Positions 24,188 to 44,545 are shown, counted from the first letter of the stretch. The stretch: DNA of 58,870 nt from Acutalibacteraceae bacterium (GCA_963645405.1 CAVISR010000001.1:1-58870), one strand, 5' to 3'. Numbers and translations: made by a program. Notes: generated by a model from the letters alone, not told the origin.

Positions 24188-24215
24188 ATCATTTGTTACA
24201 ATAACTCCATTAATG

Positions 24216-24620: not shown

Positions 24621-24748
24621 CTTCTCAAATCAATCCTTTGTGTTACTTTGCGGACCTACTTTCATGAACGAGTCTGACTGCAGATTGGAGGTCTTGATTT
24701 CGAATGTTCGGGGAAGTGGTTGATGAAATTGAAACTTCATCGTTGTTT

Positions 24749-24783
24749 CATCCGTAGGATGATGATGCTTCATCCGTAGGATG
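24749..24783. promoter_or_regulatory. Two copies of the palindrome CATCCGTAGGATG spaced 22 bp apart (operator-like)
   Basis: Copies at 24749-24761 and 24771-24783, about 170-200 bp upstream of the first gene of the SusC/SusD locus. Confidence 0.4.
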
Positions 24784-24834
24784 ACAATGCCGCGTTTGTT
24801 TGCCCCTAATACTGCAAATCCTACCCGTTTCCCC

Positions 24835-24896: not shown

Positions 24897-24904
24897 TATG
24901 TTTG
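24897..24904 (+). promoter_or_regulatory. Possible -7 box TATGTTTG for the SusC/SusD locus
   Basis: Matches TAnnTTTG, 52 nt upstream of the ATG at 24956. There is no properly spaced -33 TTTG. Confidence 0.35.
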
Positions 24905-24955: not shown

Positions 24956-27046
24956 ATGAAACTTGCAAGCAAAATATTAACACTTATGACCGCCGCCAGC
25001 GTGGTCCAACCTGCTATTGCACAAAATTGGTATAGGGTTAGTGTGAATCGTGAATCCGACTGCGACTATGAATGGAGCTTCCCTTATGCGGTAGACCAAT
25101 TCTCTTACTTCGATTTCTCTTCAAAAGACGGTGAGATTCGTGCTCATCGTGTTGATGAAGAGGAAGGTACTACTACTTATGTGCCTTTCTCTGTGGATTA
25201 TATTGACAGCATTACGTTTGTCAATGATTTGGCAGAGGAAGAGCAAACTCACAACAAGTATCAAGTCTATACACTCAACATCACTACCAATGGCTCGGTA
25301 GGCGTCACTTCCAAGGAAGATTACGTTGATTGCTATATATCCCTCGACGGAAAGGACGGCTACAACAGCTATTCTGGTTCAGGACGTATCCGTGGACGTG
25401 GTAACTCCACTTGGGCTTGGTATGACAAGAAACCTTATCGCATCAAGCTCGACAAGAAGAACAAGATGCTTGGTGTTGGCAAAAGCAAGGATTGGGTCCT
25501 TCTTGCAAACTATCGTGATGTTACAGACTTGATGAATGCGTTCATGTTTGAAACAGCTCGTTGGATGGGTATGGCTTATGTCAATCACACTCGCTTCGTC
25601 GAACTCTTCCTCGATGGTGACTACAAGGGCGTTTATCTGTTGACAGAACAGGTGGAGCAGGGTAAGAACCGCGTGGAAGTTGCTGATAACGGCGGTATCC
25701 TTCTTGCGATGGATTATGACGACGGACCGAATGGAGATACTCGTTCAGATGCCAGCTTCGCATCTTCAGTATTTGAGATGCCAATGTGTGTGAAGTATCC
25801 GAAGGATGCTACTTCAAGTCAGGTTGATTCAATCAAGGGACTTCTTGCTACACTGGAAACAACAATTGAGAATGCCGATTATGAAGCACTTGACGAGATA
25901 ATGGACATGAAGTCGTTCATGACAATGGCAATGCTTCAGGAGTATGCAGAGAATGTTGAGGTTTGTGCTCCTCGCAGCGTGTACATGTACAAGGATGCAG
26001 ACGGCAAATGGTTTATGGGACCTTTCTGGGACTGGGACGCAGGCTTTGATTTCGACTGGAGCGACATGACCACAGGACACACTTACTTCCAGAACTACAA
26101 GGAACTCGTTCTTGGAACAGACCCTGCCAATCGTGTCGGAATGTATGGTGCTACTCCACGTTTCTTCACTGACATGTTCAAGTCTGAAACATACACTCAG
26201 GCTTATCAGGATCTTTGGAACTCAGTCAAGGACTCGATCTTCACTCGCAACTGGGCAGAGATGGAGAAATACGTTGCTGAGTTGAACAAGGGTGCATACG
26301 ACCGTGACATCAAACGTTGGCCTTTGACAAATTCTTGGGGAGAGAAGTTCAGGGTGTCTGAAGAAATCTCAAAGATGAAGACTTGGCTTCAGAACCGTAC
26401 AGCTTATCTCGACAAGGTTATCAATGCATATTCAAAGAACGGGACATCAGAGTATACAGTTTCAGGCAATGTGATGACAATAAATGTTGAGCTTGATTAT
26501 GAAGCAGGCTATACGCAGAGTGTTGGCGTCGTAGTTGACCACGCTAAAATAGCAGAGATGCTTGGCATATCAGAAAGTGCACTGGCGTCATCAGCTGTCA
26601 AGTGCGTTCCTCTCAATGCAGATGGTTCTGTCGGACGTAATACTGCAGGCAAGACATACGGCGCTTGGTTCGGTAAAACCGGCAACACTGTAGATTGGGG
26701 CGATGGTCATGTCTACCTCGAATCAGATGCCATGTTCAACTTCTCTTGCGGATGTCATCCTTGGAATTGTAGTTATGGCGATACACATACTGTCAGGGTG
26801 CAGTATTCAATAAAAGTCAATGGAACGACAAAGACTGCAATTGTCAGGGTCAACTTTGGCATCAATACTGACCCGGAGGATGATGGAACAGATGTTTCAT
26901 GCAATTGTCGCCAATCAGATGCGAACGACTTCATCGGTATCGATGAAATCAAGTCAGGCAAGAGCGAGATTCGTGTAGACGATGAAATCGCGACACGGGC
27001 TTACAGCTTGAGTAACACGGAAATAATCAGAGAGAACAAAATATAA
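24956..27046 (+). CDS. Secreted CotH-family (atypical kinase fold) protein with an extra C-terminal domain of about 190 aa
   Basis: The ATG at 24956 begins MKLASKILTLMTAASVVQPAIAQ, a signal peptide. CotH-like motifs are present: GRIRGRGNSTWAWYDKKPYRIKLDKK, DWVLLANYRD, LFLDGDYKGVYLLTEQVE and FWDWDAGFDFDW. Confidence 0.75.
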   Translation: MKLASKILTLMTAASVVQPAIAQNWYRVSVNRESDCDYEWSFPYAVDQFSYFDFSSKDGEIRAHRVDEEEGTTTYVPFSVDYIDSITFVNDLAEEEQTHNKYQVYTLNITTNGSVGVTSKEDYVDCYISLDGKDGYNSYSGSGRIRGRGNSTWAWYDKKPYRIKLDKKNKMLGVGKSKDWVLLANYRDVTDLMNAFMFETARWMGMAYVNHTRFVELFLDGDYKGVYLLTEQVEQGKNRVEVADNGGILLAMDYDDGPNGDTRSDASFASSVFEMPMCVKYPKDATSSQVDSIKGLLATLETTIENADYEALDEIMDMKSFMTMAMLQEYAENVEVCAPRSVYMYKDADGKWFMGPFWDWDAGFDFDWSDMTTGHTYFQNYKELVLGTDPANRVGMYGATPRFFTDMFKSETYTQAYQDLWNSVKDSIFTRNWAEMEKYVAELNKGAYDRDIKRWPLTNSWGEKFRVSEEISKMKTWLQNRTAYLDKVINAYSKNGTSEYTVSGNVMTINVELDYEAGYTQSVGVVVDHAKIAEMLGISESALASSAVKCVPLNADGSVGRNTAGKTYGAWFGKTGNTVDWGDGHVYLESDAMFNFSCGCHPWNCSYGDTHTVRVQYSIKVNGTTKTAIVRVNFGINTDPEDDGTDVSCNCRQSDANDFIGIDEIKSGKSEIRVDDEIATRAYSLSNTEIIRENKI

Positions 27047-27062
27047 ATATTCAAATTAATTA

Positions 27063-29813
27063 ATGATTCAAAAAATTATGTTGTTAAACTTTCAGAGTAA
27101 CAAATTATGCAGACATCTCCTGATGGGAGGTGCTCTGTATGCTGCCGCTCTAGGTTTCAATGCATGTACGCCGGATTATAATCTGGATGAAGATCAGCCT
27201 ACAGGGTTGAACACCATCTACGGTTATATGGCTGATGCAGGAAACTATAAGAATTTCTTGCAGCTAATTGACGACCTGGGCGAGACTGAGACATTGTCGA
27301 AGACAGGTAGTAAGACTCTGTTCATTGCAGACGATGATGCTTTCGCAGAATTCTATGCAAACAATGAATGGGGCGTTAAGAGTTATGATCAGTTGTCAGA
27401 AGCACAGAAGAAGGTAATTCTTCGTTCTGCAATGATTGACAACCCTTATTCAATCAGCTTGATGTCAAGTGTCAAGGGACCTATTGAAGGTGAGTGTATG
27501 CGTCGTACTGCTTCACTTCAGGTGTATGACACAGTGTCAGTAATCCCAATGAACTCTCCTGAGATTCCAAACACATCTTACTGGAAAGTTCTTGCACAGA
27601 CACACGACACTATCTACATGGTTAAGGATGCTTCCGGTGCAGCACCTATGATTCATTTCCTTCCTCGTTTCTTGGAACAGAACATGATTATAGGTACTGA
27701 TGTTGACTTCCTTTACAATGATCCAGCAGGAACACATGTATCTGATGATGCTTATGTCAACAGCTGTAAGGTCGTAGAAGCAAACATCTTCTGTAAGAAC
27801 GGATTCTTGCACAAGGTAAATAAGGTTATGCTTCCTCTCGACAACATGGCAGAAATCATTCGCAAGCAACCTAATGCCACTCAGTACAGTGCTTTGGTTG
27901 AGCGTTTTGCTGCTCCAATCAGTTCTGGTATCACAAACACATTCAATCAAATCAATAACTTGGATGTTGATACCGTTTACCAGAAATCTTATTTCGCTAC
28001 ACGTGGTAGCGCTAGCTCTGGTATTACTTCAACTGAACGTAGTACAGACAAGGACGGTAATTCCATTGAGGCACTTCTTAAGTACGATCCAGGATGGAAC
28101 CGTTACTGCCCGGGAAGTATCAGCGACAATGCCCGTGATGAAGTGATGGAGGATATGGGTTGTATGCTTGTTCCTACCGACGCAGCACTTCAGAACTGGT
28201 GGGACAATGAAGGCGGTAAGGTTCTTAAAGACAACTATGGTACATGGGAGAATGTTCCTAACAAGGTTGTCAGAGAGCTTATCAAGAACAACCAGCTTGT
28301 GTCATTCGTTTCTTCTGTTCCTTCAAAGTTCAACACCATTCTCAATGATGCTGCAATGGAAATGGGAATTGAGACAACTGACGTAGACAGCGTCATCCTT
28401 GGATGTAACGGTGCCGTCTACCTTACTAATAAGGTGTTCGCTCCTACAAGCTATTCTTCAGTTCTCTTCCCTGCATTGGTTACAGAGGCAATGAGCGTAA
28501 TCTACAATGCAATCAGCGTTCTGCAGTTCGATGCATATCTGAACTCAATGGTATCAACTTATAGTTTCTTCATTCCATTGAATGATGGTCTGCTCACATA
28601 TATTGATCCAGTTTCTCTCGGACAGAACGAAACTCACATGTGGAAATTCCGTTATGACCCAGAGGGCGCTAATCAGTATGCACGTATCAGAGCTTCTGTC
28701 TTTAAGGCAACAAAAGCTGAAGACGGAACTTGGGTTCAGGGCGACTCCCTTAAAGTAATCGTTGGTTCATCCAAGACCGACCAGGTTTACGACCGACTTG
28801 AGGATATCCTTGACAACATCATCGTAATCGGTGCTATCGAGCAAGGCCAGTCTTATTACAAGACCAAAGGTAACAACTTCGTAAAGGTTGGCGGACAGGT
28901 TAATGTTGTCGGTTCTATGACAGCAGCCGGTGGATGGCAAATCGACAATGATGCTCCACTGCCAGTTCAGCAGATATATGATATGGAGAATGGTAAGTCT
29001 TATGTTGTTGAGTCTCCGCTTTACACAAGCCACAATGCTTGTAGCGATGTCCTCAGCTCAAACGATGACTTCTCGGAATTCTATTCTATACTTGTAGCTT
29101 GCGGCGCTTTGTCAACAAGTACAAGCTCAAAGATCAACTGGTCATCAGTATCAAAGAAAGGTAACTTGATTTACATCCCTGAAAATTCAAGCGAGAGTGT
29201 CAACTACCTTTTGAACACTTATCATTACACCATCTACGCACCTACAAACGAGGCAATGGAAGAAGCATATGCAATGGGACTTCCAACTATTGAGATGCTT
29301 GATGAGGCAATGGCAATTGACAACGATGACTCAACTGAGATCTATAAGGAAATCGAAGACTCAGCTGCACACCTCAGAAAGGTTATGCTTGACTTTATCA
29401 AATATCATATCCAGGATAACTCAATCTACATTGATAATGGCTATGAGTCTGGAAACTATGAAACTGCCAAGACAAATACAAACACAGGCCGTTCATTCAA
29501 AATCACAGTTGAGGTTGATGCAAACGACATGTATGTCTCAGGTGTATGTTCAGAACGCCAGAAGATAAACAAGGACAAGATGTACAATGTGACAGCCCGT
29601 GAATTCTGGCTTAACAACTACAAGGCAGAAAGTGCTACATTGATTGAAACTTCTTCAAGTGTTGTACTTCATGCAGTTGATCACCCACTCTTGTACAAGT
29701 ATAAGTCAGGTCCTGGTGTCGATATGTCCTTGCCTGAAAATAACCAGTTCATCTATTCTCCTAATGATGTATATACGGAAGAGGAAGAAGAGGCAGTAAA
29801 AACGCGTAAATAA
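27063..29813 (+). CDS. Large lipoprotein with multiple fasciclin (FAS1)-like domains
   Basis: 916 aa with a lipobox (LGFNAC). FAS1 H1-type motifs are TLFIADDDAF, MLVPTDAALQNWW, YSFFIPLNDGL and YTIYAPTNEAM. The exact start (ATG at 27063 or a downstream Met) is uncertain. Confidence 0.75.
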   Translation: MIQKIMLLNFQSNKLCRHLLMGGALYAAALGFNACTPDYNLDEDQPTGLNTIYGYMADAGNYKNFLQLIDDLGETETLSKTGSKTLFIADDDAFAEFYANNEWGVKSYDQLSEAQKKVILRSAMIDNPYSISLMSSVKGPIEGECMRRTASLQVYDTVSVIPMNSPEIPNTSYWKVLAQTHDTIYMVKDASGAAPMIHFLPRFLEQNMIIGTDVDFLYNDPAGTHVSDDAYVNSCKVVEANIFCKNGFLHKVNKVMLPLDNMAEIIRKQPNATQYSALVERFAAPISSGITNTFNQINNLDVDTVYQKSYFATRGSASSGITSTERSTDKDGNSIEALLKYDPGWNRYCPGSISDNARDEVMEDMGCMLVPTDAALQNWWDNEGGKVLKDNYGTWENVPNKVVRELIKNNQLVSFVSSVPSKFNTILNDAAMEMGIETTDVDSVILGCNGAVYLTNKVFAPTSYSSVLFPALVTEAMSVIYNAISVLQFDAYLNSMVSTYSFFIPLNDGLLTYIDPVSLGQNETHMWKFRYDPEGANQYARIRASVFKATKAEDGTWVQGDSLKVIVGSSKTDQVYDRLEDILDNIIVIGAIEQGQSYYKTKGNNFVKVGGQVNVVGSMTAAGGWQIDNDAPLPVQQIYDMENGKSYVVESPLYTSHNACSDVLSSNDDFSEFYSILVACGALSTSTSSKINWSSVSKKGNLIYIPENSSESVNYLLNTYHYTIYAPTNEAMEEAYAMGLPTIEMLDEAMAIDNDDSTEIYKEIEDSAAHLRKVMLDFIKYHIQDNSIYIDNGYESGNYETAKTNTNTGRSFKITVEVDANDMYVSGVCSERQKINKDKMYNVTAREFWLNNYKAESATLIETSSSVVLHAVDHPLLYKYKSGPGVDMSLPENNQFIYSPNDVYTEEEEEAVKTRK

Positions 29814-29815
29814 AA

Positions 29816-32800
29816 ATGAGTATGAAAAAGATATTATCAATGCTAATGCTTTTGACCTGTTTCTGTACATTGGCTCAGGCACAGGTGAAGGCAGGCGACG
29901 TAATCTCGGGTACTGTCTCAGATGATATTGAACCGCTGATGATGGTAAACGTTGTTGAGGTCGATAACAACAACCGTATCGTTGCACATGGAGTTACAGA
30001 TATCAATGGTAACTTCTCTTTCCGTTGTGTGAATCCTAAGGACCACATCCAGGTTTCATATATCGGATATCAAAAACAAACCCTCCCTATTAATAAAAAG
30101 GTGTTCAAGATTGTTTTGAAGAGCAATACTCAGATTCAGACAGTCGAGGTCAAGGCAGTGCGTAAGACACAGAGCTCTGGACTTTCAATTCCTGTGACTG
30201 AGATTTCAACTGCCCAGCAGACAATCGATATGAAAGAGTTCGAAGGTCTTGCACTTACTTCTGTTGACGAAGCTCTTCAGGGACGTATCGCCGGACTTGA
30301 TATCGTGATGAACTCAGGTAGCCTTGGTGCCGGTACTACAATGCGTCTTCGTGGTGTAAGTACTATCACTGGTAACGCTGAGCCTCTGATCGTTGTCAAC
30401 GGCAATATCTGGGAAGAGGATGTGTCAGACGACTTCGACTATAGCTCTGCAACAGAAGAGCGATTCGCAGAACTCTTGCAGGTCAACCCAGAGGATATTG
30501 AGAGCATCACAGTGTTGAAGGATGCATCTGCAACTGCCATCTGGGGTGCCCATGGTGCAAACGGTGTTATCGAAATCAAGACAAAGCGTGGTCAGAAGGG
30601 TAACACTCGCGTGAACTACTCTTATCGTTTCACTGGTACATGGCAGCCTGAAGGAATGAAGGTGCTCAATGGTGACGACTATACAATGTTCTTGAAGGAA
30701 GCTTACTTCAACCCGACTTTGAACAGCTCGATCGCCGACAATACTTCAAGTTCTTATATTCGTGAAATCAACTACGACAAGAACTATTCTCAGTACAACA
30801 TGTTCAACAACAATACAAACTGGGAAAAGGAAGTAAAACAGTTCGGACAATATCATCAGCACTATGTTTCAATCACTGGTGGTGGTGAGAAAGCCCGCTT
30901 CCGTGTTTCTGGTGGTTACGATACTCAGAAGGGTGCTGCCATCAATGAGAGACTTAACCGTTTCACTACTCGTGTAGCCCTCGACTACTACATCTCAAGC
31001 CGTATCACAGTTCAGACTAACTTCAGTTTGTCTTATACAGACAAGAAGGATTGCGATAAGGGTCTGCTCGGTATTGCATACAAGAAGATGCCAAACGTAG
31101 CCGTTTATGAAGAGGATGAGAATGATGTACCTTCAGATAATTACTATATCATGCAGAAGGAATATACTTCATCTCAGCTTAGTGACCAACTTGGTATTGC
31201 CAACCCAGTTGCTAAAGCTTATTTGCAGAAGACACGTTACAACCAGTTGAATTTGTCTCCTGAATTCATCTTCAGATATGATATCTTGGGTACTACAGGC
31301 GATTCACACCGACTCACTTATCAGGGCCAGGTCAACTTCAATGTGTCAAACTCAGACAATAAGTCATTCAGCCCTTCTGAACTTCAGACCAGCGGTTGGA
31401 CAGGCGGAGAATCAAACCTTGCTTCAACAAGTCAGAGCAAGAGCAACAGTTTCACAACCCGTCACAGTTTGACTTATGTTCCATATTTCCACAACAGAGA
31501 CCATGCGATGCAGATCCTTCTTCGTGGTGAGTATGGTTCAGGCAACAGCTCTTCACAGTCTCTTTCACGTAAGTGGATTGCAACTGGTGACATCACTTCA
31601 GCTCTTGCCGGTGGTGTGACTTCAAGCTTCGGTTCTGGTTATGGCCGTTCAAAGTCAGAGAACTTTGCATTCCAGACTCACTATGCTTACCGTGGTAAAT
31701 ATGTATTCGACTTCACTGCACGTTTTGATAAGTCAAACGGAAACCCAAAGAACTGGGGTGCTTACTATGGTATATCAGGACGTTGGAACATCTCTGATGA
31801 GAAATTCATGGAGAAGCTTGATTGGATTGACATGTTGTCACTCTCTGTAGGTTGGGGCCGCTCAGGTCGTCCAACCGGAGGTTCAACATCTATGTATAGT
31901 ACATACAGCTCAACCGGTTCTTACATGGGAGTTACAGCAGTTGCTCCTCAGCAGATCCGTCTGTCAGTCATCCGTCCTGCAAACCAGGATACTTGGAACA
32001 TCGGTTCATACTTCGGTTTCTTGAATGACAAGATCACCGGTGACGTTCAGGTTTATACAAACAAGTCTGAGCAGGTGGCTTCTTACCCAATACCTTATTC
32101 TTCAGGTTTCGCAAACATCCCTGCAAGACTTACCGGTAAGGTCCGCAATACAGGTTGGGAGTTCAACATCAATGGTAACCGTATCATCAAGAGAGGTAAC
32201 TTCTCAATGGACTTCAACATGTCATTCTCTAACAACCGCAACCGTATCCTTGAGATGAATTCAATCATCCTTGATGGATACAACTCAGAGTTCAACTACT
32301 CAAACGGTCAGTACTTGTCACGTGTACAAATCAACAACCCAATCGGTTCTATCTATGGTTTCCGCTATAAGGGTGTGTATGCATACAGCGAGTATAGTGC
32401 AGAAGAAGTTCCTGGAGTAAGTGGACCAGATGCACCTGTAGCACGTAATGCTGAAGGTGAGGTTATCCTCAACCAAAGCGGTAATACCAAAGATATGGTA
32501 TTCAATTACAGTGGTGTAAACTACCAGTTCAAGGGTGGTGATGCCAAGTACGAAGATGTAAACCACGATGGTGAAATCAATGAGCTTGATATTGTCTACC
32601 TCGGTTCTTCACTTCCAAAACTGAATGGTGGTTTCGGATTCAAATTCAAGTATAAGGACTTTGGTGTTAATGTTCAGTTCGTTTACCGTCTCGGTCAGAA
32701 GGTTGTCAACTCTGCGCGTATGAATGCCGAGAACATGTACAACAACAACAACCAGTCACGTGCAGTCAACTGGCGTTGGCACAATGAAGGTGATGTAACT

Positions 32801-33103
32801 GAAATACCAAGAGCATTGTACAACTACGGTTACAACTGGCTCGCATCCGACCGTTTCATTGAAGATGCATCATATCTGCGTTGCAACTACGTAAGTTTCT
32901 CATATAACTTCAAACCAAGCTTCTTGAAGCAGTTTGGTATCAGAAGTTTGGCAGCTTACCTCAACTTGAACAACCTGTTCATTCTGACAAAGTACTCAGG
33001 TGCTGATCCTGAAATCTCTCAGAGTGGTTACTCAGCAGCAACAGACTCAGGACGTACTCCACGCGCGAAGTCATTCACTCTTAATTTAAATGTTGGATTC
33101 TAA
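29816..33103 (+). CDS. SusC/RagA-family TonB-dependent outer-membrane transporter (pair 1)
   Basis: 1095 aa. It has a signal peptide, a carboxypeptidase-regulatory-like domain (VISGTVSDD...DINGNFSF) and a plug (ITVLKDASATAIWGAHGANGVIEIKTKRG). The barrel ends in ...NLNVGF. Confidence 0.92.
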   Translation: MSMKKILSMLMLLTCFCTLAQAQVKAGDVISGTVSDDIEPLMMVNVVEVDNNNRIVAHGVTDINGNFSFRCVNPKDHIQVSYIGYQKQTLPINKKVFKIVLKSNTQIQTVEVKAVRKTQSSGLSIPVTEISTAQQTIDMKEFEGLALTSVDEALQGRIAGLDIVMNSGSLGAGTTMRLRGVSTITGNAEPLIVVNGNIWEEDVSDDFDYSSATEERFAELLQVNPEDIESITVLKDASATAIWGAHGANGVIEIKTKRGQKGNTRVNYSYRFTGTWQPEGMKVLNGDDYTMFLKEAYFNPTLNSSIADNTSSSYIREINYDKNYSQYNMFNNNTNWEKEVKQFGQYHQHYVSITGGGEKARFRVSGGYDTQKGAAINERLNRFTTRVALDYYISSRITVQTNFSLSYTDKKDCDKGLLGIAYKKMPNVAVYEEDENDVPSDNYYIMQKEYTSSQLSDQLGIANPVAKAYLQKTRYNQLNLSPEFIFRYDILGTTGDSHRLTYQGQVNFNVSNSDNKSFSPSELQTSGWTGGESNLASTSQSKSNSFTTRHSLTYVPYFHNRDHAMQILLRGEYGSGNSSSQSLSRKWIATGDITSALAGGVTSSFGSGYGRSKSENFAFQTHYAYRGKYVFDFTARFDKSNGNPKNWGAYYGISGRWNISDEKFMEKLDWIDMLSLSVGWGRSGRPTGGSTSMYSTYSSTGSYMGVTAVAPQQIRLSVIRPANQDTWNIGSYFGFLNDKITGDVQVYTNKSEQVASYPIPYSSGFANIPARLTGKVRNTGWEFNINGNRIIKRGNFSMDFNMSFSNNRNRILEMNSIILDGYNSEFNYSNGQYLSRVQINNPIGSIYGFRYKGVYAYSEYSAEEVPGVSGPDAPVARNAEGEVILNQSGNTKDMVFNYSGVNYQFKGGDAKYEDVNHDGEINELDIVYLGSSLPKLNGGFGFKFKYKDFGVNVQFVYRLGQKVVNSARMNAENMYNNNNQSRAVNWRWHNEGDVTEIPRALYNYGYNWLASDRFIEDASYLRCNYVSFSYNFKPSFLKQFGIRSLAAYLNLNNLFILTKYSGADPEISQSGYSAATDSGRTPRAKSFTLNLNVGF

Positions 33104-33116
33104 TAAATCAAAGACA

Positions 33117-34985: not shown

Positions 34986-34987
34986 TT

Positions 34988-37048: not shown

Positions 37049-37070
37049 TCGTCAAATATAATTTTCGTTT

Positions 37071-38786
37071 ATGAGAAAGAATATAAAATTATCAATCCGC
37101 ACAGGAGTTGTAGCAATGGCAAGTGTTCTTGCCTGCTACTCCTGTTCTGATACATGGGACGACCACTATAACTCCACTATCGATGGTAATAAAGTGGATG
37201 CAACCATTTATGAACAGTTGAAGTCGGATTCCAGACTGAGTGATTTCGTCCAAATCATCGATGCAACTGGTTATGACGCTCTGCTTGATGAAAGCCAGAT
37301 AATAACTGTATTTGCCCCTGTCAATGACTCATTCAACAAGGACAGCTTGTTGAATGAAATCAATATAGGTCACAAGGACAATGTTATTACCCGTTTCGTT
37401 AAGAACCACGTGGCACGTTTCAATTACTCTTCAACGATACATGAGCAGACTGTTCCTCTCTTGAACAAGAAGAACATTACACTCCAGAGAGGAGTTGTAA
37501 GTGCTGACTCAGTAAAAACATTGGAGACTGAAACTGTTTGCAACAATGGTATTCTCTATAAGTTGAATGGCGAACTTCCGTTCCATCCAAATATATATGA
37601 GGAGATGGCTGTGACTGCAGGCATGGATTCAATCTATGGAATGCTCTCATATTACGACAAAGACTCTTTGGATGTCGGCCGTAGTGTTTACCGTGGTGTT
37701 GACGAAGATGGAAACCGCATTTATGTGGACTCTGTCGTTATCAACAGCAACAAGTTGATGCAGCGTTTGGATGCCTACATCTTGCGTGAGGACTCCAACT
37801 ATATGGCAATCATCCCAAACAATGATGCATATACAAACCGCTTGAATCTCGTCAAGAAGTACTTCAATTATAACATACATGAGGACGGTAGGGATTCTTT
37901 GCAGAATTTCTATGCAAACTACTACACACTGAATACTCTGTTCTATAATATGAATACCAACATGCATGATGAGGACTCATTGGTTGCAACTACTTACAGC
38001 AAGTACAACCCTGACCATTATGTGTTCTACGACCCATATAAGGAGGACGGTATTCTTGCTCCAGGCTCATACAATGACAAGATCAGTTGCAGTAACGGTA
38101 TTATCTACACTGTAGATTCAATCCCGACTTCTATCTACGATGCATTCTTCCATGATATCGAGTTGGAAGCAGAAGCAACAGGTAATATCAACACAGATGA
38201 GAATGCACAAGGCAACGCTCTCTACACTAAGACTTGTACATACAGTGTGGTTTCTGCCAACGACTCAATTCTGAAGGTTTCTGAGAAGGCTTATCTTGAT
38301 GTCAAGCCATCTTCAAGTTCTGCCCAGCCATACATTACATTCAATGTTCCTGGAACTCTTGCCGGTACATATGACATGTACCTCGTGACTGTACCTTTGA
38401 AATATGGAAATGATGTTGCAGAAACAGATTCACTGAAGCCTTATCAGTTCCGTGTCAATATGTTCTATCGTACAAACAGAGCAACTGATACCAGCTCTTC
38501 ACTGCCAACCTCAAAGAGTGAGACATTGAAGGATCCTATCAAGGGCGGTCAGAACTTCGTGAGCGATCCAAACCAGGTGGATACCATCTATCTTGGAACA
38601 AAGACATTCACTGAGTGCTACAAGAATGCATCCAACGTAGGAGTCCTGCTTCAGATTCAGGCTTATGTATCTTCTTCTCAGACAAAGAACTACTCTCGTC
38701 GTATGCTCCTCGACCGTATTCTCTTCCGTCCAAGCGGAATGCCTGATGACGAGTACCAGGTGTACAAGACTGCAAAAGACGAATAG
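37071..38786 (+). CDS. Fasciclin (FAS1) domain lipoprotein
   Basis: 571 aa with a lipobox (LACYSC). FAS1 motifs are ITVFAPVNDSFNK and MAIIPNNDAYTNRL. It ends in ...LLDRILFRPSG... Confidence 0.75.
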   Translation: MRKNIKLSIRTGVVAMASVLACYSCSDTWDDHYNSTIDGNKVDATIYEQLKSDSRLSDFVQIIDATGYDALLDESQIITVFAPVNDSFNKDSLLNEINIGHKDNVITRFVKNHVARFNYSSTIHEQTVPLLNKKNITLQRGVVSADSVKTLETETVCNNGILYKLNGELPFHPNIYEEMAVTAGMDSIYGMLSYYDKDSLDVGRSVYRGVDEDGNRIYVDSVVINSNKLMQRLDAYILREDSNYMAIIPNNDAYTNRLNLVKKYFNYNIHEDGRDSLQNFYANYYTLNTLFYNMNTNMHDEDSLVATTYSKYNPDHYVFYDPYKEDGILAPGSYNDKISCSNGIIYTVDSIPTSIYDAFFHDIELEAEATGNINTDENAQGNALYTKTCTYSVVSANDSILKVSEKAYLDVKPSSSSAQPYITFNVPGTLAGTYDMYLVTVPLKYGNDVAETDSLKPYQFRVNMFYRTNRATDTSSSLPTSKSETLKDPIKGGQNFVSDPNQVDTIYLGTKTFTECYKNASNVGVLLQIQAYVSSSQTKNYSRRMLLDRILFRPSGMPDDEYQVYKTAKDE

Positions 38787-38812
38787 TGTTTAACTCCTAA
38801 AGATTGAATTAT

Positions 38813-41800
38813 ATGAAAACATATTTTAATAACAATATGCTGCGTTTCTGCAAAGCAGGAATTGCTACTATGATATTCTGCGTAGGAGTTCTTCCAATGT
38901 CTGCGCAAGATGAAGAGGAAACCCAGGCCATCGAAGAGGCTCCTGTGAAAAAGAAAGTAAAGAAACCAATCAAGAAATATCCGATGATGGAGATTTCCGG
39001 TAAGATTGTCGACGCATCAACTGGCGAACCTTTGGCAGGTGTGAAAGTCAAGTCTTACAACAACAGTTTCTATACTGCCATGACAGACGAAGAGGGAAAC
39101 TACAAGATTAGTGTTCCTACTTTCGTAACCTCATTGTCTGCTACACTTGAAGGCTACAATCTTGGTCAGGTTGCTATCAACGACCGCTCTCAGGGCGTGG
39201 ACTTCAAGCTCTACACAGACAGATATCTTGGAATCTATACAGACAAGACCAGTGCTTCAAAGGTTGTCAGTACATCTGGATTCGGTGAAGACGGAGCTTT
39301 CACTGCAGACCAGGAAATCCAGAACCGTTTGGGCGGAGATGTTCATACAGCTTCCCGTTCAGGAATCATTGGAAATGGTGTCAACATGTTCATTGATGGT
39401 TTCCACTCTATCAATGCATCTTCTCAACCGTTGGTTGTGATTGATGGTGTAATCCATGACCAGTTGTACAACTCAACAATGATGCACAACGGTTACTTCA
39501 ACAACCAGTTGACTTCACTCAGTATGGACGACATTGCAGATATCAAGATTATGAAGAACGGTACTGCAATCTATGGCTCTCAGGCAGCCAATGGCGTTAT
39601 CCTTATCACTACCAAGCGTAACACTACGATGAAGACAACCATCGATGTGAATATCAGCGGCGGTTTCGAATTCGTTCCTTCTACGCCTGACATGATGAAT
39701 GCTGACGAGTATAGGTCTTATGCATCTGCGCTCTTGAAGAATACCAACAGCAAGTTGGAGAACTTCAAGTTCTTGCAGACAGACCCTAACTACTATTATT
39801 ATAATATGTATCACAACAACACAGATTGGAAAGATGTTGTCTACAGAGAAGCTTTCTCGCAGAACTATGGAATCAACATCCAGGGTGGTGACGAAGTTGC
39901 CAACTACAACCTTTCTGTGGGATACATGTCAGCAAAGTCAACACTTAAGCGTAATGATATCGACCGTTTCCACATCCGATTCAACTCTGACATCATCTTG
40001 AGCGACAAGTTGACTACACGCTTCGACGTTTCTTATTCAAACCTCAAGCGCGACTTGAGAGATGACGGTCTGACCAGCACATTCCAGGCCAATGCCGTTT
40101 CTTCTCCAAATGTACTTGCACTTCTCAAGTCTCCGTTCGTTGCTCCTTATGACTTTGCGACAAACGGTGTGATGTCACACTTCGTTTCCGATGCAGACGA
40201 TTACCTTGATGAGGCAGTCGGAAGTTCGGCTTCTCTTGCCAACCCACTTGGTTTGCTCGAGAATGCAGAGGCTCTTAACAAGAACCGTACGGACAATACC
40301 AACGTGAATATAGCGATCACTCCAGTATGGCATATCAAGACCAACATGACATTGCAGGAGCGTTTCAGCTATACTACCAACAGTTTCGATGAGAACTACT
40401 ACACTTCAATTGTCGGTATGCCAAGATACTACATCCAGGATATCGGAGTTGTGGAAAATGAAGTAGGTTCAAACTTCTCAACACATAAGGCGTTGATGAG
40501 TGACACCCGTTTCGACTGGGCAATTCCACTCGGCAAGCACCGTCTTGATGCATTTGCAGGTGTACGCTATATGAGCGACAACTACAAGGCTTCAAACCTC
40601 TATGCTTACAGTACTGGTAACGACAAGACTCCTTCGCTCGGCAATGCAACAGGCAAGCGCCGTGTCGTTGGTACCGATGAAACATGGAAGTCACTCTCTT
40701 GGTATGGTAACCTCGATTACAACTATCGTGAGAAGTATTACCTCCAGGGTTCATTCGCACTTCAGTCTTCTTCCCGTTTCGGTGACGAGGCTGATGCCGG
40801 TGTCAAGATGTTTGGTGTCAGATGGGGATTCTTCCCTTCTATCCAGGGAACATGGGTAATCAGCAATGAGAAGTGGTTTAACTCAAGCAAGCTCGTGAAC
40901 ATGTTGAAGGTGAATGCCGGATTCGAGTCAGTCGGTAACGACTCTTACGACAACAATGCAGCATACACTTACATGAGCAGTAATGCATTCCTCTTGAATA
41001 AGGTTGTAGGTATCGGTATCACAAATATCGGTAATGCCAAGTTGCGTTGGGAAACTACCAACCGCTTCAATGCAGGACTTGAAGGAAACTTCTTCAACAA
41101 CCGTTTGAACGCCAAACTCAACTACTTCTATGCAAAGACAAACAATCTTGTAACACTTGGAACCATTGCTTATGTTTCAGGACAGAAGCAGTATTGGACC
41201 AATGACGGTGCAATGAAGAACCAAGGTTTCGACGTAGCTTTGACTGGTAAGGTCGTAGACGAGAAGAACTTCAAGTTCGAGCTTGCTGCAAGCCTCGGTC
41301 ATTACAAGAATGAGGTAACTCAGTTGCCTGAGAATGTCGGCTCAATGGAGTCCGAATACTATAACGCTACACTCCTTACAAAGGTAGGAAGTCCGCTCTC
41401 AGTATTCTATGGCTACAAGACAAACGGTGTGTTCTCAACAACAGAGCAGGCTGAAGCAGCAGACCTCGGCATACTTGATGATGCAGGAAACAAGGTTAAC
41501 TTCAAGGCAGGCGACATGATTTTCGTTGACAAGAATGGCGACAAGATTATTGACGAGAACGACCGCTATATCATTGGTGATCCTAATCCGGACATCTATG
41601 GAAATATCCGTGCTACCTTCATGTTCGGAAAGAACTGGACATTGGGCGTCAACTTCAACTACAGCGTTGGAAATGACGTTTACAACTACCAGCGTTCAAT
41701 CCTCGAAGGAGGAAATGCTTTCCTGAACCAGACAACTGCAATGAACCGCCGTTGGATTGCTGAAGGTCAGTCAACAGATATTCCACAGGCAGTCTACAAC

Positions 41801-42079
41801 GACGAGATGGGCAACTCGCGTTTCTCAGACCGTTGGATTGAGAACGGCTCATACTTGAAGTTGAAGAATGTAACCCTTAGCTATAAGCTCCCAGTATCCA
41901 ACACATACATCCAGGGACTTACCATTTGGGCAGCAGGAAACAACTTGCTTACATTCACTAAGTACTTGGGCTCAGACCCAGAAGTGTCTTGTGGCAATTC
42001 ATCATTGGTTCAGGGAATCGATGCAGGCTACACTCCTTTTGGTCGCAGTATAACTCTCGGTGTTAAGATTAACTTGTAA
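38813..42079 (+). CDS. SusC/RagA-family TonB-dependent outer-membrane transporter (pair 2)
   Basis: The ATG at 38813 is preferred over the TTG at 38804. It has a signal peptide, a Lys/Glu-rich linker, a carboxypeptidase-regulatory-like domain (ISGKIVDASTGEPLAGVKV) and a plug (IKIMKNGTAIYGSQAANGVILITTKR). It ends in ...GVKINL. Confidence 0.92.
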   Translation: MKTYFNNNMLRFCKAGIATMIFCVGVLPMSAQDEEETQAIEEAPVKKKVKKPIKKYPMMEISGKIVDASTGEPLAGVKVKSYNNSFYTAMTDEEGNYKISVPTFVTSLSATLEGYNLGQVAINDRSQGVDFKLYTDRYLGIYTDKTSASKVVSTSGFGEDGAFTADQEIQNRLGGDVHTASRSGIIGNGVNMFIDGFHSINASSQPLVVIDGVIHDQLYNSTMMHNGYFNNQLTSLSMDDIADIKIMKNGTAIYGSQAANGVILITTKRNTTMKTTIDVNISGGFEFVPSTPDMMNADEYRSYASALLKNTNSKLENFKFLQTDPNYYYYNMYHNNTDWKDVVYREAFSQNYGINIQGGDEVANYNLSVGYMSAKSTLKRNDIDRFHIRFNSDIILSDKLTTRFDVSYSNLKRDLRDDGLTSTFQANAVSSPNVLALLKSPFVAPYDFATNGVMSHFVSDADDYLDEAVGSSASLANPLGLLENAEALNKNRTDNTNVNIAITPVWHIKTNMTLQERFSYTTNSFDENYYTSIVGMPRYYIQDIGVVENEVGSNFSTHKALMSDTRFDWAIPLGKHRLDAFAGVRYMSDNYKASNLYAYSTGNDKTPSLGNATGKRRVVGTDETWKSLSWYGNLDYNYREKYYLQGSFALQSSSRFGDEADAGVKMFGVRWGFFPSIQGTWVISNEKWFNSSKLVNMLKVNAGFESVGNDSYDNNAAYTYMSSNAFLLNKVVGIGITNIGNAKLRWETTNRFNAGLEGNFFNNRLNAKLNYFYAKTNNLVTLGTIAYVSGQKQYWTNDGAMKNQGFDVALTGKVVDEKNFKFELAASLGHYKNEVTQLPENVGSMESEYYNATLLTKVGSPLSVFYGYKTNGVFSTTEQAEAADLGILDDAGNKVNFKAGDMIFVDKNGDKIIDENDRYIIGDPNPDIYGNIRATFMFGKNWTLGVNFNYSVGNDVYNYQRSILEGGNAFLNQTTAMNRRWIAEGQSTDIPQAVYNDEMGNSRFSDRWIENGSYLKLKNVTLSYKLPVSNTYIQGLTIWAAGNNLLTFTKYLGSDPEVSCGNSSLVQGIDAGYTPFGRSITLGVKINL

Positions 42080-42094
42080 ACAATCTCAAATTGT

Positions 42095-42116
42095 CCCTCC
42101 TCTTTCGGGAGGAGGG
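42095..42116 (+). other. GC-rich hairpin capped by a UUCG tetraloop in the susC2-susD2 spacer
   Basis: CCCTCCTCT at 42095-42103 pairs with GGGAGGAGGG at 42107-42116 (8 Watson-Crick pairs plus 1 G-U) around the loop TTCG at 42104-42107. No U tract follows. Confidence 0.6.
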
Positions 42117-42138
42117 CATGATAACAAAACAAATATAT

Positions 42139-44196
42139 ATGAAAACAAAATCAATCATATTGTCAGGCTTGCTCCTTGCGTCACTTGGAGCTGCCACTAC
42201 TTCATGCGATGATATGCTTAATGTTGACGACGAGTTGCATACAACCAATCTTGCACCTCAGGATACAGTATATCAGGTGATGGGTATTCTCAATCGCATG
42301 CAGAGTCTGGTTGACCGTACTGTGTTGCTTGGTGAACTTCGTGCTGACCTCGTTGACCTCAACGAGGCTGTTGCGAGTACATCACTCCAGGAAATCATGG
42401 ATAACAATATATCAACCGACAACGAATACAACTCTATCTCTGACTACTATTCAGTGATAAATGCTTGTAACGTTTACCTTGCATACGTTGACTCAAACTA
42501 TGTTGAGCACAACAGAAAGAAGTATGAGAAGGAAATCCAGGCAGTGAAGACCTATAGAGCTTGGACATATCTTGAAATGGCAAAGGTCTACGGACGTGTT
42601 CCTTTCGTTACTGAGCCGGTACTTACTTCTGTAGAGGCAGACAAGATTGTAGCTTCAACTACCAATCGTGCCGACATGAATGAAATCTGTACTTATTTCA
42701 TCAACGAACTGCTCCCTTATGTGCAGAAGTCTAGTCCTGTTAGTGTACCAAACTATGGCGTAGATGGTTATCGCAGCCAGACTTTCTTCATTCCTGTTCG
42801 TCTGATGGTAGCAGAGCTCTATCTTTGGAGAGGTAACTATACTCATAATACATCCGATTTCACAAATGCCTGCACGTATTATTTTGACTATATAAATACA
42901 GTCAATAACGTTGTTACAACAGGAACAGCGAGCGTAAAGTGGAATAATAACACTATGCGTCATTCTTCAGACTCTTACTCGACGAATTTCACAACTGCAG
43001 ACACCATCACTATCATCCCAATGGATACATGTGCGTATGATGGAACATGGAGTCAACTCTATGCAATGTTCAATTCACAGTATGAGAACAATTACTATGT
43101 GCCTATCGTTCCGTCACAGCGTATCCGTGAAATCTCTGGTGCGCAGATCAACTGTGTTTATTCAGAGATAAACAATCAGCGTGATACAACGTATAGCACA
43201 TCAAAGATTGAATGGGAAGACTCAATGAAGATGGGTGACCTTCGTCTTGATGCTATCTACAACCGTTCAGCTGTGAGCAACATGTATACTTCTCAGTACA
43301 GTCAGGACCGTCAGCACATCATGAAGTACGCAAAAAGTTCTTCAAACTATGGCTCTGACCAGAAGCTGAAGTCTTACACAGTATATCGTAAGAATATTGT
43401 TTGGCTGCACTTTGCAGAGGCACTTAACCGTGCTGGTTTCCCTCAGACAGCATTCGCTATTCTGAAGTATGGCTTGACCCAGGAAAACATGTCTAATTAT
43501 GTGTCAGAAGCCGAACGTACCAATCTCAGAAAGATTCCTTCTTATATAAAAGGAAATATCTCAAGTTGGGATTATGATGATTTTGTAACAATACATTCAT
43601 CCAATTACGACAGAACGAGCAAACTTGCCAATACTATTGGTATACACTCACGTGGATCCGGTGATTCTGAATACAACAAGTACTATGCATTGTCAAACGA
43701 TACAGCTGTATGGAATCCTGTAGAACGACTTGAGTATGTAAAGGATTCCTTGGCAGACCTTGCAACTCTTGCACGTTCTGAAGGTGTGTACACTGAGGAT
43801 ACAACTTATGTAGTGTATGATAGCTTGGGCAATGCCATGACAGTATCCTCTTACCATTATGAATTTGAATCGGATTCATTGCGTGAGGCTTACATAGAAG
43901 CAAATATTGCTGCAGTTAACGCCGAGACTGCTTGGAAAGAAGCAGATATCGCAGCTTATCAGTCGTGCCTTCCAGGATGGCAGGAAGAAGTTGCCCAGAA
44001 GATTCTTGACGAGGAAGCTCTTGAAGGTGCGTTTGAGGGACAGCGTTTCTACGACCTGATGCGTTTCGCAATGTACACAGGCGATGCCGACTATATTGCA
44101 AAGCAGGTTATCAAGCGCAAGGGCTCAGACACAACTGACCCTCGTGGTGAAACTCTCCGTGGAGGTAACTGGTATCTGCCACTGCCTACTAAGTAA
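42139..44196 (+). CDS. SusD/RagB-family lipoprotein (pair 2)
   Basis: The ATG at 42139 begins MKTKSIILSGLLLASLGAATTSC, with a lipobox. The C-terminal motif EEALEGAFEGQRFYDLMRFA is SusD-like. Confidence 0.88.
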   Translation: MKTKSIILSGLLLASLGAATTSCDDMLNVDDELHTTNLAPQDTVYQVMGILNRMQSLVDRTVLLGELRADLVDLNEAVASTSLQEIMDNNISTDNEYNSISDYYSVINACNVYLAYVDSNYVEHNRKKYEKEIQAVKTYRAWTYLEMAKVYGRVPFVTEPVLTSVEADKIVASTTNRADMNEICTYFINELLPYVQKSSPVSVPNYGVDGYRSQTFFIPVRLMVAELYLWRGNYTHNTSDFTNACTYYFDYINTVNNVVTTGTASVKWNNNTMRHSSDSYSTNFTTADTITIIPMDTCAYDGTWSQLYAMFNSQYENNYYVPIVPSQRIREISGAQINCVYSEINNQRDTTYSTSKIEWEDSMKMGDLRLDAIYNRSAVSNMYTSQYSQDRQHIMKYAKSSSNYGSDQKLKSYTVYRKNIVWLHFAEALNRAGFPQTAFAILKYGLTQENMSNYVSEAERTNLRKIPSYIKGNISSWDYDDFVTIHSSNYDRTSKLANTIGIHSRGSGDSEYNKYYALSNDTAVWNPVERLEYVKDSLADLATLARSEGVYTEDTTYVVYDSLGNAMTVSSYHYEFESDSLREAYIEANIAAVNAETAWKEADIAAYQSCLPGWQEEVAQKILDEEALEGAFEGQRFYDLMRFAMYTGDADYIAKQVIKRKGSDTTDPRGETLRGGNWYLPLPTK

Positions 44197-44227: not shown

Positions 44228-44265
44228 GGGAGAGGGGCGCTTGTCGTCCCTCTCTTTCTGTTTTA
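44228..44265 (+). terminator. Rho-independent terminator after susD2
   Basis: GGGAGAGGG at 44228-44236 pairs with CCCTCTCTT at 44248-44256, with inner pairs C38-G46 and G39-C45. TCTGTTTT follows. Confidence 0.6.
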
Positions 44266-44501: not shown

Positions 44502-44545
44502 TAAATTGAGATGTTTTCAAGACATTCATGTAGAGATAAATTAAG

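Follow-up and report, generated by a model that had tools for sequence, protein, structure and literature searches.

The Ara-PUL of B. thetaiotaomicron combines two SusC/SusD pairs with a surface glycan-binding protein (SGBP) and surface GH43 arabinanases (PMC8002723) and is one example of an established arrangement, two SusC/SusD pairs in a single polysaccharide utilization locus (PUL). Similar to the Ara-PUL (BT0348–BT0369), the locus described here, found in a stretch of 58,870 nucleotides (the window), carries two SusC/SusD pairs and dedicated, putative surface glycan-binding lipoproteins, and orthologous modules lie beside genes for GH43 endo-1,5-arabinanase, GH43 arabinofuranosidase and GH127 (related to GH146). 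Unlike the Ara-PUL, the window has no GH, HTCS or arabinose-catabolism gene, the arabinanase being present in relatives only (L047). Furthermore, the putative binding proteins are based on FAS1 domains, and the gene order is FAS1-C-D-FAS1-FAS1-C-D with a CotH-fold protein at the head. The xylan core xusA-E of Prevotella and Bacteroides, known from rumen and gut Prevotellaceae, consists of two SusC/SusD pairs in tandem, after which comes a hypothetical lipoprotein SGBP. Here, unlike in the xylan core, FAS1 genes are interleaved between the pairs, while a GH115-GH95-GH43 set like that of complex xylan PULs stands beside solitary paralogues of one of them, Fas686. The locus resembles SGBPs of the SusE/SusF type and of utilisomes in having multi-domain lipoproteins directly after SusD and a distal CBM-like β-sandwich, with a putative role in binding, but the stalk consists of FAS1 rather than Ig-like or DUF-type domains and no sequence relationship was detected.

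ORF calling finds eight plus-strand genes running in one direction from 24956 to 44196, which encode a CotH+DUF4859 protein, a four-unit FAS1 lipoprotein, a SusC, a SusD, two further FAS1 lipoproteins, a second SusC and a second SusD. The spacers between the longest ORFs are −14 to 22 nt, and the 2–59 nt given in the preliminary description are reproduced with the likelier ATG starts (33117, 38813 and 42139). The gene identities proposed there are all upheld by Pfam/NCBIfam profile searches, and its placement of the locus in the core genome is correct: the 5′ flank is the ribosomal superoperon, ending in rpoA-rplQ, and the 3′ flank carries leuA, leuC and further leu genes. A predicted intrinsic-terminator-like hairpin 3′ of rplQ (24212–24241, + strand; a 13-pair stem followed by TTTTT) sets the locus apart from the ribosomal operon. 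TAnnTTTG, the Bacteroidota −7 motif, is the Bacteroides promoter consensus. Its sole match in the 765-nt intergenic region (regex scan) is TATGTTTG (24897–24904, + strand), 52 nt 5′ of the CotH ATG, which is a candidate promoter of the operon. The terminator reported after SusD2 corresponds to an intrinsic-terminator-like hairpin at 44228–44256 (+ strand; a 12-pair stem with seven GC pairs). The window does have a tRNA gene, at 57531–57604, which lies 13 kb away from the locus. Lipoboxes, read directly, are NAC in gene 2, VSC in gene 4, ASC in gene 5, YSC in gene 6 and TSC in gene 8.

SusC1 (29816–33103, + strand, 1095 aa) and SusC2 (38804–42079, likely ATG 38813, + strand, 1091 aa) are TonB-dependent transporters that match the SusC/RagA family TIGR04056 over their full length with 623 and 575 bits, respectively (cut-off 368), SusC1 also having SusC homologues in the PDB. 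In Pfam, both have an N-terminal CarboxypepD_reg-like domain and a Plug, and neither matches STN, which agrees with what had been read from the translations. The two are only 25% identical. SusD1 (33090–34985, likely start 33117, + strand, 631 aa), which has SusD homologues in the PDB, matches SusD_RagB PF07980 (6.7e-18, 65.8 bits) and PF14322 (1.2e-10). SusD2 (42091–44196, likely ATG 42139, + strand, 701 aa) is a divergent SusD-like lipoprotein with a PF07980 match that is weak but above threshold (27.4 bits, cut-off 23.1) and a PF14322 score of 26.9 bits against a cut-off of 27; it shares 28% identity with SusD1 across 189 aa and is invariably located 3′ of SusC2 in related loci. The adjacent susC-like/susD-like pair by which a PUL is recognized is thus present twice.

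All three FAS1 lipoproteins match Fasciclin (PF02469) above the Pfam threshold: Fas916 (27063–29813, + strand, 916 aa) with 1e-16, Fas686 (34988–37048, + strand, 686 aa) with 2e-15 and Fas571 (37071–38786, + strand, 571 aa), which also has FAS1 matches in the PDB, with 7e-10. A motif scan locates the H1/YH/H2 motifs of FAS1 in these proteins, which are mutually undetectable by BLAST. Fas916 had been credited with about four FAS1 motifs. Its first unit (ending at residue 258) and its last (residues ~714–837) are covered by the Pfam family, and the two middle units are marked by H1/H2-like motifs with weak hhalign support. Fas571 is made up of a FAS1 domain, a second FAS1-like unit and an unassigned C-terminal domain, which hhalign did not link to its counterpart in Fas686 (probability 9.6%). 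Fas916 is a putative surface binding protein and Fas571 a putative second one.

The AlphaFold2 (AF2) model of Fas686 (pLDDT 87.3, pTM 0.82) contains a FAS1 domain (residues ~40–190), a FAS1 domain with insertions (~195–440) and a C-terminal CBM6/35-like β-sandwich (~470–686). In Foldseek, the model aligns with tandem-FAS1 structures at 1e-13 over ~390 columns, the best matches being periostin, TGFBIp and fasciclin I. The C-terminal domain is similar to a xylan-binding module, CBM6, CBM35 and Cry domain III at modest E-values of 1e-4 to 4e-3 (7EHG 1e-4, 4QAW 8e-4, 8J3X 4e-3), which are matches at the level of fold only, and no Pfam CBM matches it. The family of this domain comprises 487 clusters, in all of which it is C-terminal, and Fasciclin is present in 28 of the 40 members sampled. 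The modelled layout of Fas686 is that expected of a surface glycan-binding protein, a role that is putative here. CBM-like folds are also present in proteins that do not bind glycans, which counts against this assignment.

The head gene (24956–27046, + strand; longest ORF from 24953) encodes a secreted, non-lipoprotein CotH-fold protein of 697 aa. It matches Pfam CotH over the whole HMM (1.2e-43, 150 bits, cut-off 23.8) and, in addition, DUF4859 (6.7e-13). Its AF2 model (pLDDT 83.5) consists of an N-terminal β-sandwich (residues ~25–131), the CotH domain (146–486), a DUF4859 β-sandwich (~500–636) and a disordered tail (650–696). A sequence search of the PDB gives no match, and identity to Bacillus CotH is below 15%; Foldseek matches the model to B. 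cereus CotH 5JDA/5JD9 (E 6e-12, TM 0.72, probability 1.0). The signal peptide (...AIAQ|N) has no Cys, and neither a lipobox nor a T9SS C-terminal domain is present. The protein may thus reside in the periplasm, a compartment in which no ATP would be expected. Similar to Bacillus CotH, with which it shares the Pfam family and the fold, it retains the catalytic-loop Asn, the WDxD metal (Mg)-binding Asp and the Lys residues of the KK-x-Y motif: N333 (aligned by hhalign with N228), D359 (with D246; D251 in Bsu) and K158/K159 (with KKSY) are invariant in 56 sequences. Unlike Bacillus CotH, it carries the two flanking β-sandwich domains, has no sporulation context and aligns Q328 with the catalytic Asp (Bsu D228), a position that is Gln in 41 and His in 15 of the 56 sequences and is followed by an invariant E329. 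The profile alignment behind this mapping has a probability of only 44%, so a shift by one residue at the catalytic Asp is possible. The kinase fold ascribed to the head protein is borne out by Pfam and Foldseek. The label 'kinase' is uncertain, since conservation does not appear to extend to the catalytic Asp. CotH-dockerin proteins recur in bacterial and fungal cellulosomes, and this counts in favour of a link to glycans. The present protein shares with cellulosomal CotH (e.g. C. thermocellum CseP, Cthe_0044) its export and a link, putative here, to the machinery that breaks down plant cell walls, but it has no dockerin.

Of 84 fetched loci, each limited to 10 kb, 49 preserve the order Fas916-SusC1-SusD1-Fas686-Fas571-SusC2-SusD2; these 49 core loci come from ~45 species-level genomes. 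Almost all of the hosts are Prevotellaceae MAGs from rumen, horse, deer or other guts, several with two or three copies. Although the paralogues are ancient and the identity of Fas686 among loci falls to about 44–50%, both SusC/SusD pairs and the three FAS1 genes are always retained. Judged from this synteny, the seven genes 3′ of CotH are an old, fixed module. The head gene is variable: it is CotH in 16 loci and a GH43/LamG-type protein in most others, with Laminin_G_3 in 16, aBig_2 in 10, GH43_C in five and GH43 in three of 24 non-CotH head genes.

The Pfam/NCBIfam scan of the eight proteins and the other large ORFs of the window found no CAZyme (GH, PL, CE or CBM) and no HTCS, ECF-sigma/anti-sigma, SusR or GntR regulator, as the preliminary description had stated, and no peptidase domain either. 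It had named in advance, as a refutation, a catalytic domain of a CAZyme or a peptidase in any of the four proteins other than SusC and SusD; there is none, nor did the literature searched yield a paper tying this gene set to a substrate. Its further statements, that the locus has no obvious degradative function and an open substrate, are too strong in view of the relatives. In L047, the strand that carries SusD2 has a GH43 gene 132 nt further 3′, with a match of 1e-104 to endo-1,5-alpha-L-arabinanase 4KCB. In L079, a GH127 beta-L-arabinofuranosidase is encoded 50 nt downstream, the head gene of L059 is related to AXH-type GH43 3C7E (5.5e-63), and L032 and L037 have GH43+GH43_C head genes. A linked CAZyme, another mark of characterised PULs, is found in these five orthologous loci. 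The CotH+DUF4859 protein has a homologue (46% identical) that adjoins GH127 in L001, which also favours a glycan. No GH10, GH5 or GH30 xylanase adjoins any of the 49 core loci.

On balance, the block is probably a single operon, the products of which would form the core for capture and import at the outer membrane in a plant cell-wall glycan PUL, most likely one for arabinan or another L-arabinofuranose-rich polymer. The GH43 and GH127 genes beside the module, the CBM-like domain of Fas686 and the precedent of PULs with two SusC/SusD pairs point to an uptake and binding core with its enzymes and sensor elsewhere. The substrate is assigned by association, from three well-resolved cases and from head genes that are incomplete because the loci end at 10 kb. 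The lack of any CAZyme, sugar-metabolism gene or sensor on the 58.9-kb contig counts against this reading, as do the possible periplasmic location of CotH, the failure to link the C-terminal domains of Fas571 and Fas686, and the peptidases near some related loci (L065 with S41/PDZ, L034 with a Zn peptidase and L001 with C10). Some solitary Fas686 paralogues lie beside GH115-GH95-GH43 genes and HTCS sensors, the only places where HTCS genes were seen, but the neighbours of solitary paralogues are in most cases housekeeping genes, which again speaks against a glycan PUL.

Those peptidases would fit the import of plant hydroxyproline-rich glycoproteins (extensins, arabinogalactan proteins) or glycopeptides, with FAS1 binding a protein or glycan surface, GH127 cutting off Hyp-linked beta-L-arabinofuranosides, and CotH acting as a protein kinase on a Ser-rich polypeptide, as Bacillus CotH does on CotB/CotG. 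RagAB is an importer of peptides. SusC1 matched RagAB in the PDB search, which accords with peptide import by SusC/D-type systems, and GH127 adjoins both the module (L079) and the CotH+DUF4859 homologue (L001). Proteins with Ser-rich repeats are phosphorylated by Bacillus CotH (PMC7821199), but the present protein does not appear to have kept the catalytic Asp, ATP has no source beyond the cytoplasm and the window has no peptidase, while the endo-arabinanase and the AXH-type GH43 indicate a polysaccharide. We consider a glycoprotein substrate unlikely, if not strikingly so.

The matches of Fas686 to periostin, TGFBIp and fasciclin I raise another alternative, since FAS1 is a classical adhesion domain. 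The locus would then serve adhesion or surface architecture rather than nutrition, its FAS1 proteins attaching to plant particles, host matrix or other cells, a function known from FAS1 proteins of eukaryotes, and its SusC/SusD pairs acting as anchors or as importers of an unrelated small ligand. Enzymes and a sensor are absent from the window, and a locus placed directly behind the ribosomal operon might be expressed constitutively. The FAS1 genes have been strictly conserved together with two complete pairs of TonB-dependent transporter and SusD across deep divergence, which is an argument for uptake, arabinose-directed GH genes recur beside the module and Fas686 carries a CBM-like domain, which together make adhesion quite improbable. 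It is most improbable that the ligand of the FAS1 proteins is a hydrophobic metabolite of plants, e.g. a carotenoid as in algal AstaP, which SusC/D would then import. The herbivore-gut distribution would suit this, and the first FAS1 domain is weakly similar in sequence and structure to astaxanthin-binding fasciclin proteins (8C18, 22IY), but such matches reflect the FAS1 fold in general and fall behind those to TGFBIp and periostin, lipid-metabolism genes are absent nearby, and the CBM-like domain and neighbouring GH43/GH127 genes would be left unexplained.

In the preferred reading of a plant cell-wall glycan PUL, the mechanism, inferred in all but the domain assignments, would be as follows. 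The three FAS1 lipoproteins would be displayed on the cell surface as glycan-binding proteins, in which Fas686, and perhaps Fas571, would hold out a CBM-like C-terminal β-sandwich on a two-FAS1 stalk. They would hand glycan fragments to the two SusC/SusD pairs, which are only ~25% identical and may take up, by TonB-dependent transport, oligosaccharides of two classes that differ in size or decoration. The sensor and glycoside hydrolases such as GH43 and GH127 would be encoded elsewhere in the genome, and CotH+DUF4859, with its nucleotide-binding kinase fold and β-sandwich, would be an exported accessory factor for the same substrate class. The locus, a probable nutrient-uptake cluster, is widely conserved among Prevotella-like bacteria of the gut and is carried by dozens of uncultured Prevotellaceae species of the herbivore and human gut.

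The locus comprises eight ORFs on the + strand between positions 24953 and 44196 (ORF calling of the window), and the Pfam and NCBIfam scans uphold the inventory of CotH, FAS1, SusC and SusD proteins given in the preliminary description. Gene 1 matches the full-length CotH HMM (PF08757, 1.2e-43) and DUF4859 (6.7e-13). Genes 2, 5 and 6 match Fasciclin (1e-16, 2e-15 and 7e-10, respectively) and are called here, by their length in residues, Fas916, Fas686 and Fas571. Genes 3 and 7 are SusC/RagA proteins (SusC1 and SusC2; TIGR04056, 623 and 575 bits, cut-off 368 bits) with CarboxypepD_reg-like and Plug domains; as claimed from the translations, the domain scan gives no STN domain in either. Gene 4 (SusD1) is a clear SusD, and gene 8 (SusD2) is a divergent one (PF07980, 27.4 bits vs a cut-off of 23.1). 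NCBIfam has no match for the CotH or FAS1 proteins. Gene 1 carries a signal peptide without a lipobox cysteine, and lipoboxes are present on genes 2, 4, 5, 6 and 8. The gaps between the longest ORFs are –14 to 22 nt; the spacers of 2–59 nt reported earlier are obtained with the likelier ATG starts at 24956, 33117, 38813 and 42139. In neither the eight proteins nor the contig's other large ORFs do the scans detect a CAZyme, peptidase or regulator domain, so the lack of recognisable CAZymes and regulators, first judged by eye, stands.

The core-genome setting described before is also borne out: the locus follows the ribosomal superoperon and precedes the leu operon. Terminator-like hairpins lie after rplQ (24212–24241) and, where a terminator had been proposed, after SusD2 (44228–44256). 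TAnnTTTG, the –7 promoter consensus of Bacteroidota, occurs once in the 765-nt leader (position 24897, 52 nt ahead of the CotH ATG), and an Rfam search of the leader finds no known RNA. The operon would probably be transcribed from a promoter near 24897, ending at 44256. The leader between rplQ and CotH also holds a 23-nt tandem repeat (24335–24621; 12.7 copies, 94% matches) in two sub-variants, first CATCGCCCGACGAGCGTTTGTC-type and then GATGAGCGTATGGCTCATTGCCC-type, with a short palindrome, TGAGC-N5-GCTCA, inside every unit. This array is not found in any of the 84 homologous loci fetched from other genomes, and in one of them (L004) the counterpart of the rplQ–CotH intergenic region is only ~230 nt long. 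Between the array and the candidate promoter there is a direct repeat of 22 nt x 2 (TTCATCCGTAGGATGA..., 24747–24790). Beyond the locus, a further terminator-like hairpin (44543–44573; a 14-pair stem and a T-run, ~185 nt upstream of leuA) has no Rfam match and could be a leu leader or attenuator. The leu operon holds two LeuA-like genes (HMGL-like and LeuA_dimer; 44758–46257 and 48383–49909), the second of which probably encodes a paralogue of the citramalate or homocitrate synthase type. The contig ends with a tRNA gene (57531–57604) and a BspA-type leucine-rich-repeat surface protein (57809–58861, – strand); an LRR_5 protein is also found directly upstream of CotH in one related locus (L003).

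Genes 2–8 form a conserved module. A Fas686 alignment scanned against one genome per GTDB species yields 181 relatives, of which the best 80 loci were taken with 10-kb flanks, and gene order in the fetched loci was established by ORF calling followed by BLAST against the eight window proteins. The sources of the best 80 are nearly all uncultured Prevotellaceae of rumen, horse, deer and other guts, which GTDB places in Bacteroidaceae. The succession Fas916–SusC1–SusD1–Fas686–Fas571–SusC2–SusD2 is kept in order and strand in 49 of the 84 fetched loci, with identities falling to minima of 44–50% for Fas686 and ~35% for SusD2. Within the window, SusC1 and SusC2 are 25% identical, SusD1 and SusD2 are 28% identical across part of their length, and none of the three FAS1 proteins finds another by BLAST. 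Because the order is kept at low identity and the paralogues are old, the module is ancient and all seven of its parts are held by selection. A recent duplication is rejected, as SusC1 and SusC2 are just 25% identical. A mobile island is rejected as well: the position after rplQ is common to the locus and its relatives (L17 is the upstream gene in two distant loci too), leuA is also retained downstream in close relatives, and the GC content is unremarkable. Two contigs whose loci are 89–90% identical to that of the window, L006 and L029, are labelled ‘Candidatus Methanomethylophilaceae archaeon’ and ‘Alistipes ihumii’ and are probably mis-binned or mislabelled MAG contigs. A nearer relative with the locus, L005, is 96% identical.

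The AlphaFold2 model of Fas686, built from a 121-sequence alignment, is reliable (pLDDT 87.3, pTM 0.82). In Foldseek, ~390 columns align with the tandem-FAS1 proteins periostin, TGFBIp and fasciclin I (1e-13), and the C-terminal β-sandwich (residues 470–686) matches jelly rolls of the carbohydrate-binding type, namely the xylan-binding module 7EHG (1e-4), CBM35 of Xyn30D, CBM6E, the C-terminal domains of GH115 and GH2 enzymes, and Cry toxin domain III. The classical FAS1 motifs TxFAPTN (H1), SYH (the YH dyad) and NGVxHxID (H2, twice) are invariant across the 121 homologues, as are many residues of the C-terminal domain. The family of this domain comprises 487 clusters at 50% identity (E<=1e-3, among 1.84 billion representatives); the domain is invariably C-terminal, in proteins mostly of ~520–760 residues, and Pfam Fasciclin is present in 28 of 40 sampled members. 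Fas571 has a similar motif outline (FAS1, a FAS1-like unit and a C-terminal domain), and hhalign gives no link between the two C-terminal domains (probability 9.6%). For Fas916, the earlier count of about four FAS1 units holds for both end units, which are Pfam-significant; the two middle units are seen at the motif level, with weak hhalign matches. Pfam searches at E<=5 of Fas686 190–686, Fas571 190–571 and Fas916 260–700 find no further domain. Since these lipoproteins are encoded around SusC/D and combine stalk-like repeats with a distal CBM-like module, they have, we infer, the layout of surface glycan-binding proteins (SGBPs) and may act as such. No functional paper on the FAS1-plus-β-sandwich family was found in the literature.

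The kinase-fold identity of gene 1, suggested in the preliminary description, is corroborated by its AF2 model (pLDDT 83.5), which matches the Bacillus cereus CotH kinase 5JDA/5JD9 with a Foldseek probability of 1.0 and a TM of 0.72. A PDB sequence search with the protein and with a 56-sequence profile retrieves no CotH structure; the relation to known structures is seen through the fold search only. The protein consists of an N-terminal β-sandwich, in which Pfam at E<=5 finds no further domain, a kinase-fold core (residues 146–486), a DUF4859 β-sandwich (~500–636) and a disordered tail; a T9SS C-terminal domain and a lipobox are both absent. For residue mapping, the 5JD9 sequence was obtained by a query with a Bacillus CotH sequence, and a Bacillus CotH profile was built, which matches the window CotH profile with a probability of 44%, making the mapping tentative. 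In this alignment the invariant K158-K159-x-Y161 pairs with the KKSY motif, and N333 with the catalytic-loop Asn; the metal-binding Asp (B. subtilis D251) has its counterpart in D359, part of an invariant WDWD. Opposite the catalytic Asp (B. subtilis D228) stands position 328, occupied by Gln in 41 of the 56 homologues and by His in the other 15; the residue right after it, Glu329, is invariant. The D228Q mutant of B. subtilis CotH is inactive (PMC7821199). Binding of nucleotide and metal is probably retained, and the protein may be a kinase with a Glu base, another kind of transferase or a pseudokinase.

The CotH+DUF4859 combination is common in Bacteroidales (>3,900 matches at E<=1e-3 among the candidates scored). 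In L001 a protein of this type, 46% identical, has a GH127 on one side and a DUF6055+DUF4859 protein on the other, with a C10 peptidase nearby. The full order there (7107–17522; also in L002) is GH127, a small Por_Secre_tail protein, CotH+DUF4859, DUF6055+DUF4859 and peptidase C10 with Inhibitor_I69, so that DUF4859 recurs paired with different catalytic-looking partners. L028 (7563–17214), in which two divergent CotH-like proteins flank a solitary Fas686 paralogue, is an independent CotH–FAS1 association; the pair is 23–29% identical to the window CotH and DUF4859-positive in an aggregated scan. Cellulosomes of clostridia and of fungi are known to contain CotH–dockerin proteins, and together with the PUL (polysaccharide utilization locus) context this means that CotH turns up repeatedly, in systems unrelated to one another, alongside machinery for plant cell walls.

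CotH+DUF4859 heads 16 of the 49 loci with the complete module; in the distant ones CotH is 40–47% identical and separated from the module by 360–1066 nt. A different gene stands at the head of 24 loci, mostly incomplete at the edge of the 10-kb flank; among these 24 head genes Pfam finds Laminin_G_3 in 16, aBig_2 in 10, GH43_C in five, GH43 in three and Dockerin in two. Wherever a module neighbour is better resolved, it is an enzyme directed at arabinose: in L059 the head gene matches the B. subtilis AXH-type GH43 (3C7E, 5.5e-63), in L047 a gene that begins 132 nt downstream from SusD2 matches endo-1,5-α-L-arabinanases (1e-104 to 4KCB), and in L079, a locus from a complete chromosome, a GH127 β-L-arabinofuranosidase lies 50 nt downstream of SusD2. 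The CAZyme-free window is therefore one variant of a module that elsewhere adjoins enzymes for L-arabinofuranosyl-containing plant glycans, a link to substrate by association, not proof. In four loci a third SusC-like gene continues the module. Some Prevotellaceae proteins encoded beside the module or beside paralogues of it (L067 2–1486, L041 16898–20191) carry dockerin type I, in a GH43_C–aBig_2–LamG–dockerin architecture; to our knowledge, dockerins are unusual in Bacteroidota. Solitary Fas686 paralogues occur in 28 loci, with two to three copies in several genomes, in heterogeneous contexts mostly without a functional clue. One recurring setting is GH115–GH95–unknown–GH43–Fas686 with a divergent HTCS. 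In L041, L042 and L046 (~1300–16400) the unknown is a 687-residue protein, the GH43 carries GH43_C2, and a dockerin-bearing 1098-residue protein is also present; no SusC/D lies within 10 kb of these solitary Fas686 genes, and the cluster resembles a complex set of enzymes of the xylan or arabinogalactan type.

It is slightly more likely than not that the locus is a plant-glycan uptake core with FAS1-type SGBPs. The FAS1 lipoproteins would seize plant glycan at the cell surface, the two distinct SusC/D pairs would bring in different fragment classes, and GH43-, GH127- and GH51-type enzymes and a sensor would work in trans. An arabinan or arabinose-rich substrate in particular is a more tentative proposition, with chances somewhat below even. 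Tandem SusC/D pairs are known from xylan PULs too. For SusC1 and SusD1, the matches in the PDB are of a generic kind that does not hint at a substrate. The rival readings are that the locus takes up hydroxyproline-rich glycoproteins, with CotH acting on the polypeptide, that it is purely adhesive, or that a hydrophobic ligand is taken up. The broad function is probably conventional plant-glycan foraging, and the nearest functional precedent for such an uptake core is the Ara-PUL of Bacteroides thetaiotaomicron, where two SusC/D pairs are combined with an SGBP and with GH43 endo-arabinanases at the surface (PMC8002723). A bolder and rather unlikely proposal is that CotH+DUF4859 is a PUL-encoded exported kinase-fold enzyme, which through Glu329, Asn333 and Asp359 would phosphorylate or nucleotidylate imported oligosaccharides or else a glycan or glycoprotein of the plant cell wall, an activity that the CotH modules of bacterial and fungal cellulosomes would share, and that the FAS1+CBM-like lipoproteins are an unrecognised SGBP class in Prevotellaceae utilisomes.

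Among predicted PULs neither a double SusC/D arrangement nor the absence of linked CAZymes is unusual. What is new is a class of putative surface glycan-binding proteins, conserved and of FAS1+CBM-like make-up, the fixed arrangement of the seven genes and the recurrent tie to a CotH-fold protein whose catalytic Asp, in the tentative alignment, appears replaced. The literature search found nothing on any of the three, nor anything relevant joining fasciclin, CotH or DUF4859 to SusC/SusD, PULs or Prevotella, the mentions of ‘fasciclin’ being incidental. The locus itself is genuine and conserved and lends itself to testing.

Prevotellaceae are the dominant group in the rumen and in human guts on plant-rich diets, and most of their predicted PULs are, as far as we know, uncharacterised. 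The gene order of the module is fixed over dozens of species, and the FAS1-plus-β-sandwich family spans several hundred 50%-identity clusters. If glycan binding holds true, these proteins would be a new structural class of SGBP, and a common CAZyme-less PUL would be assigned a substrate. CotH-fold proteins accompany the machinery for plant cell walls in Bacteroidota PULs as well as in clostridial and in fungal cellulosomes, three settings with no relation to one another, and the operon is therefore a tractable place to probe what CotH does outside the cytoplasm.
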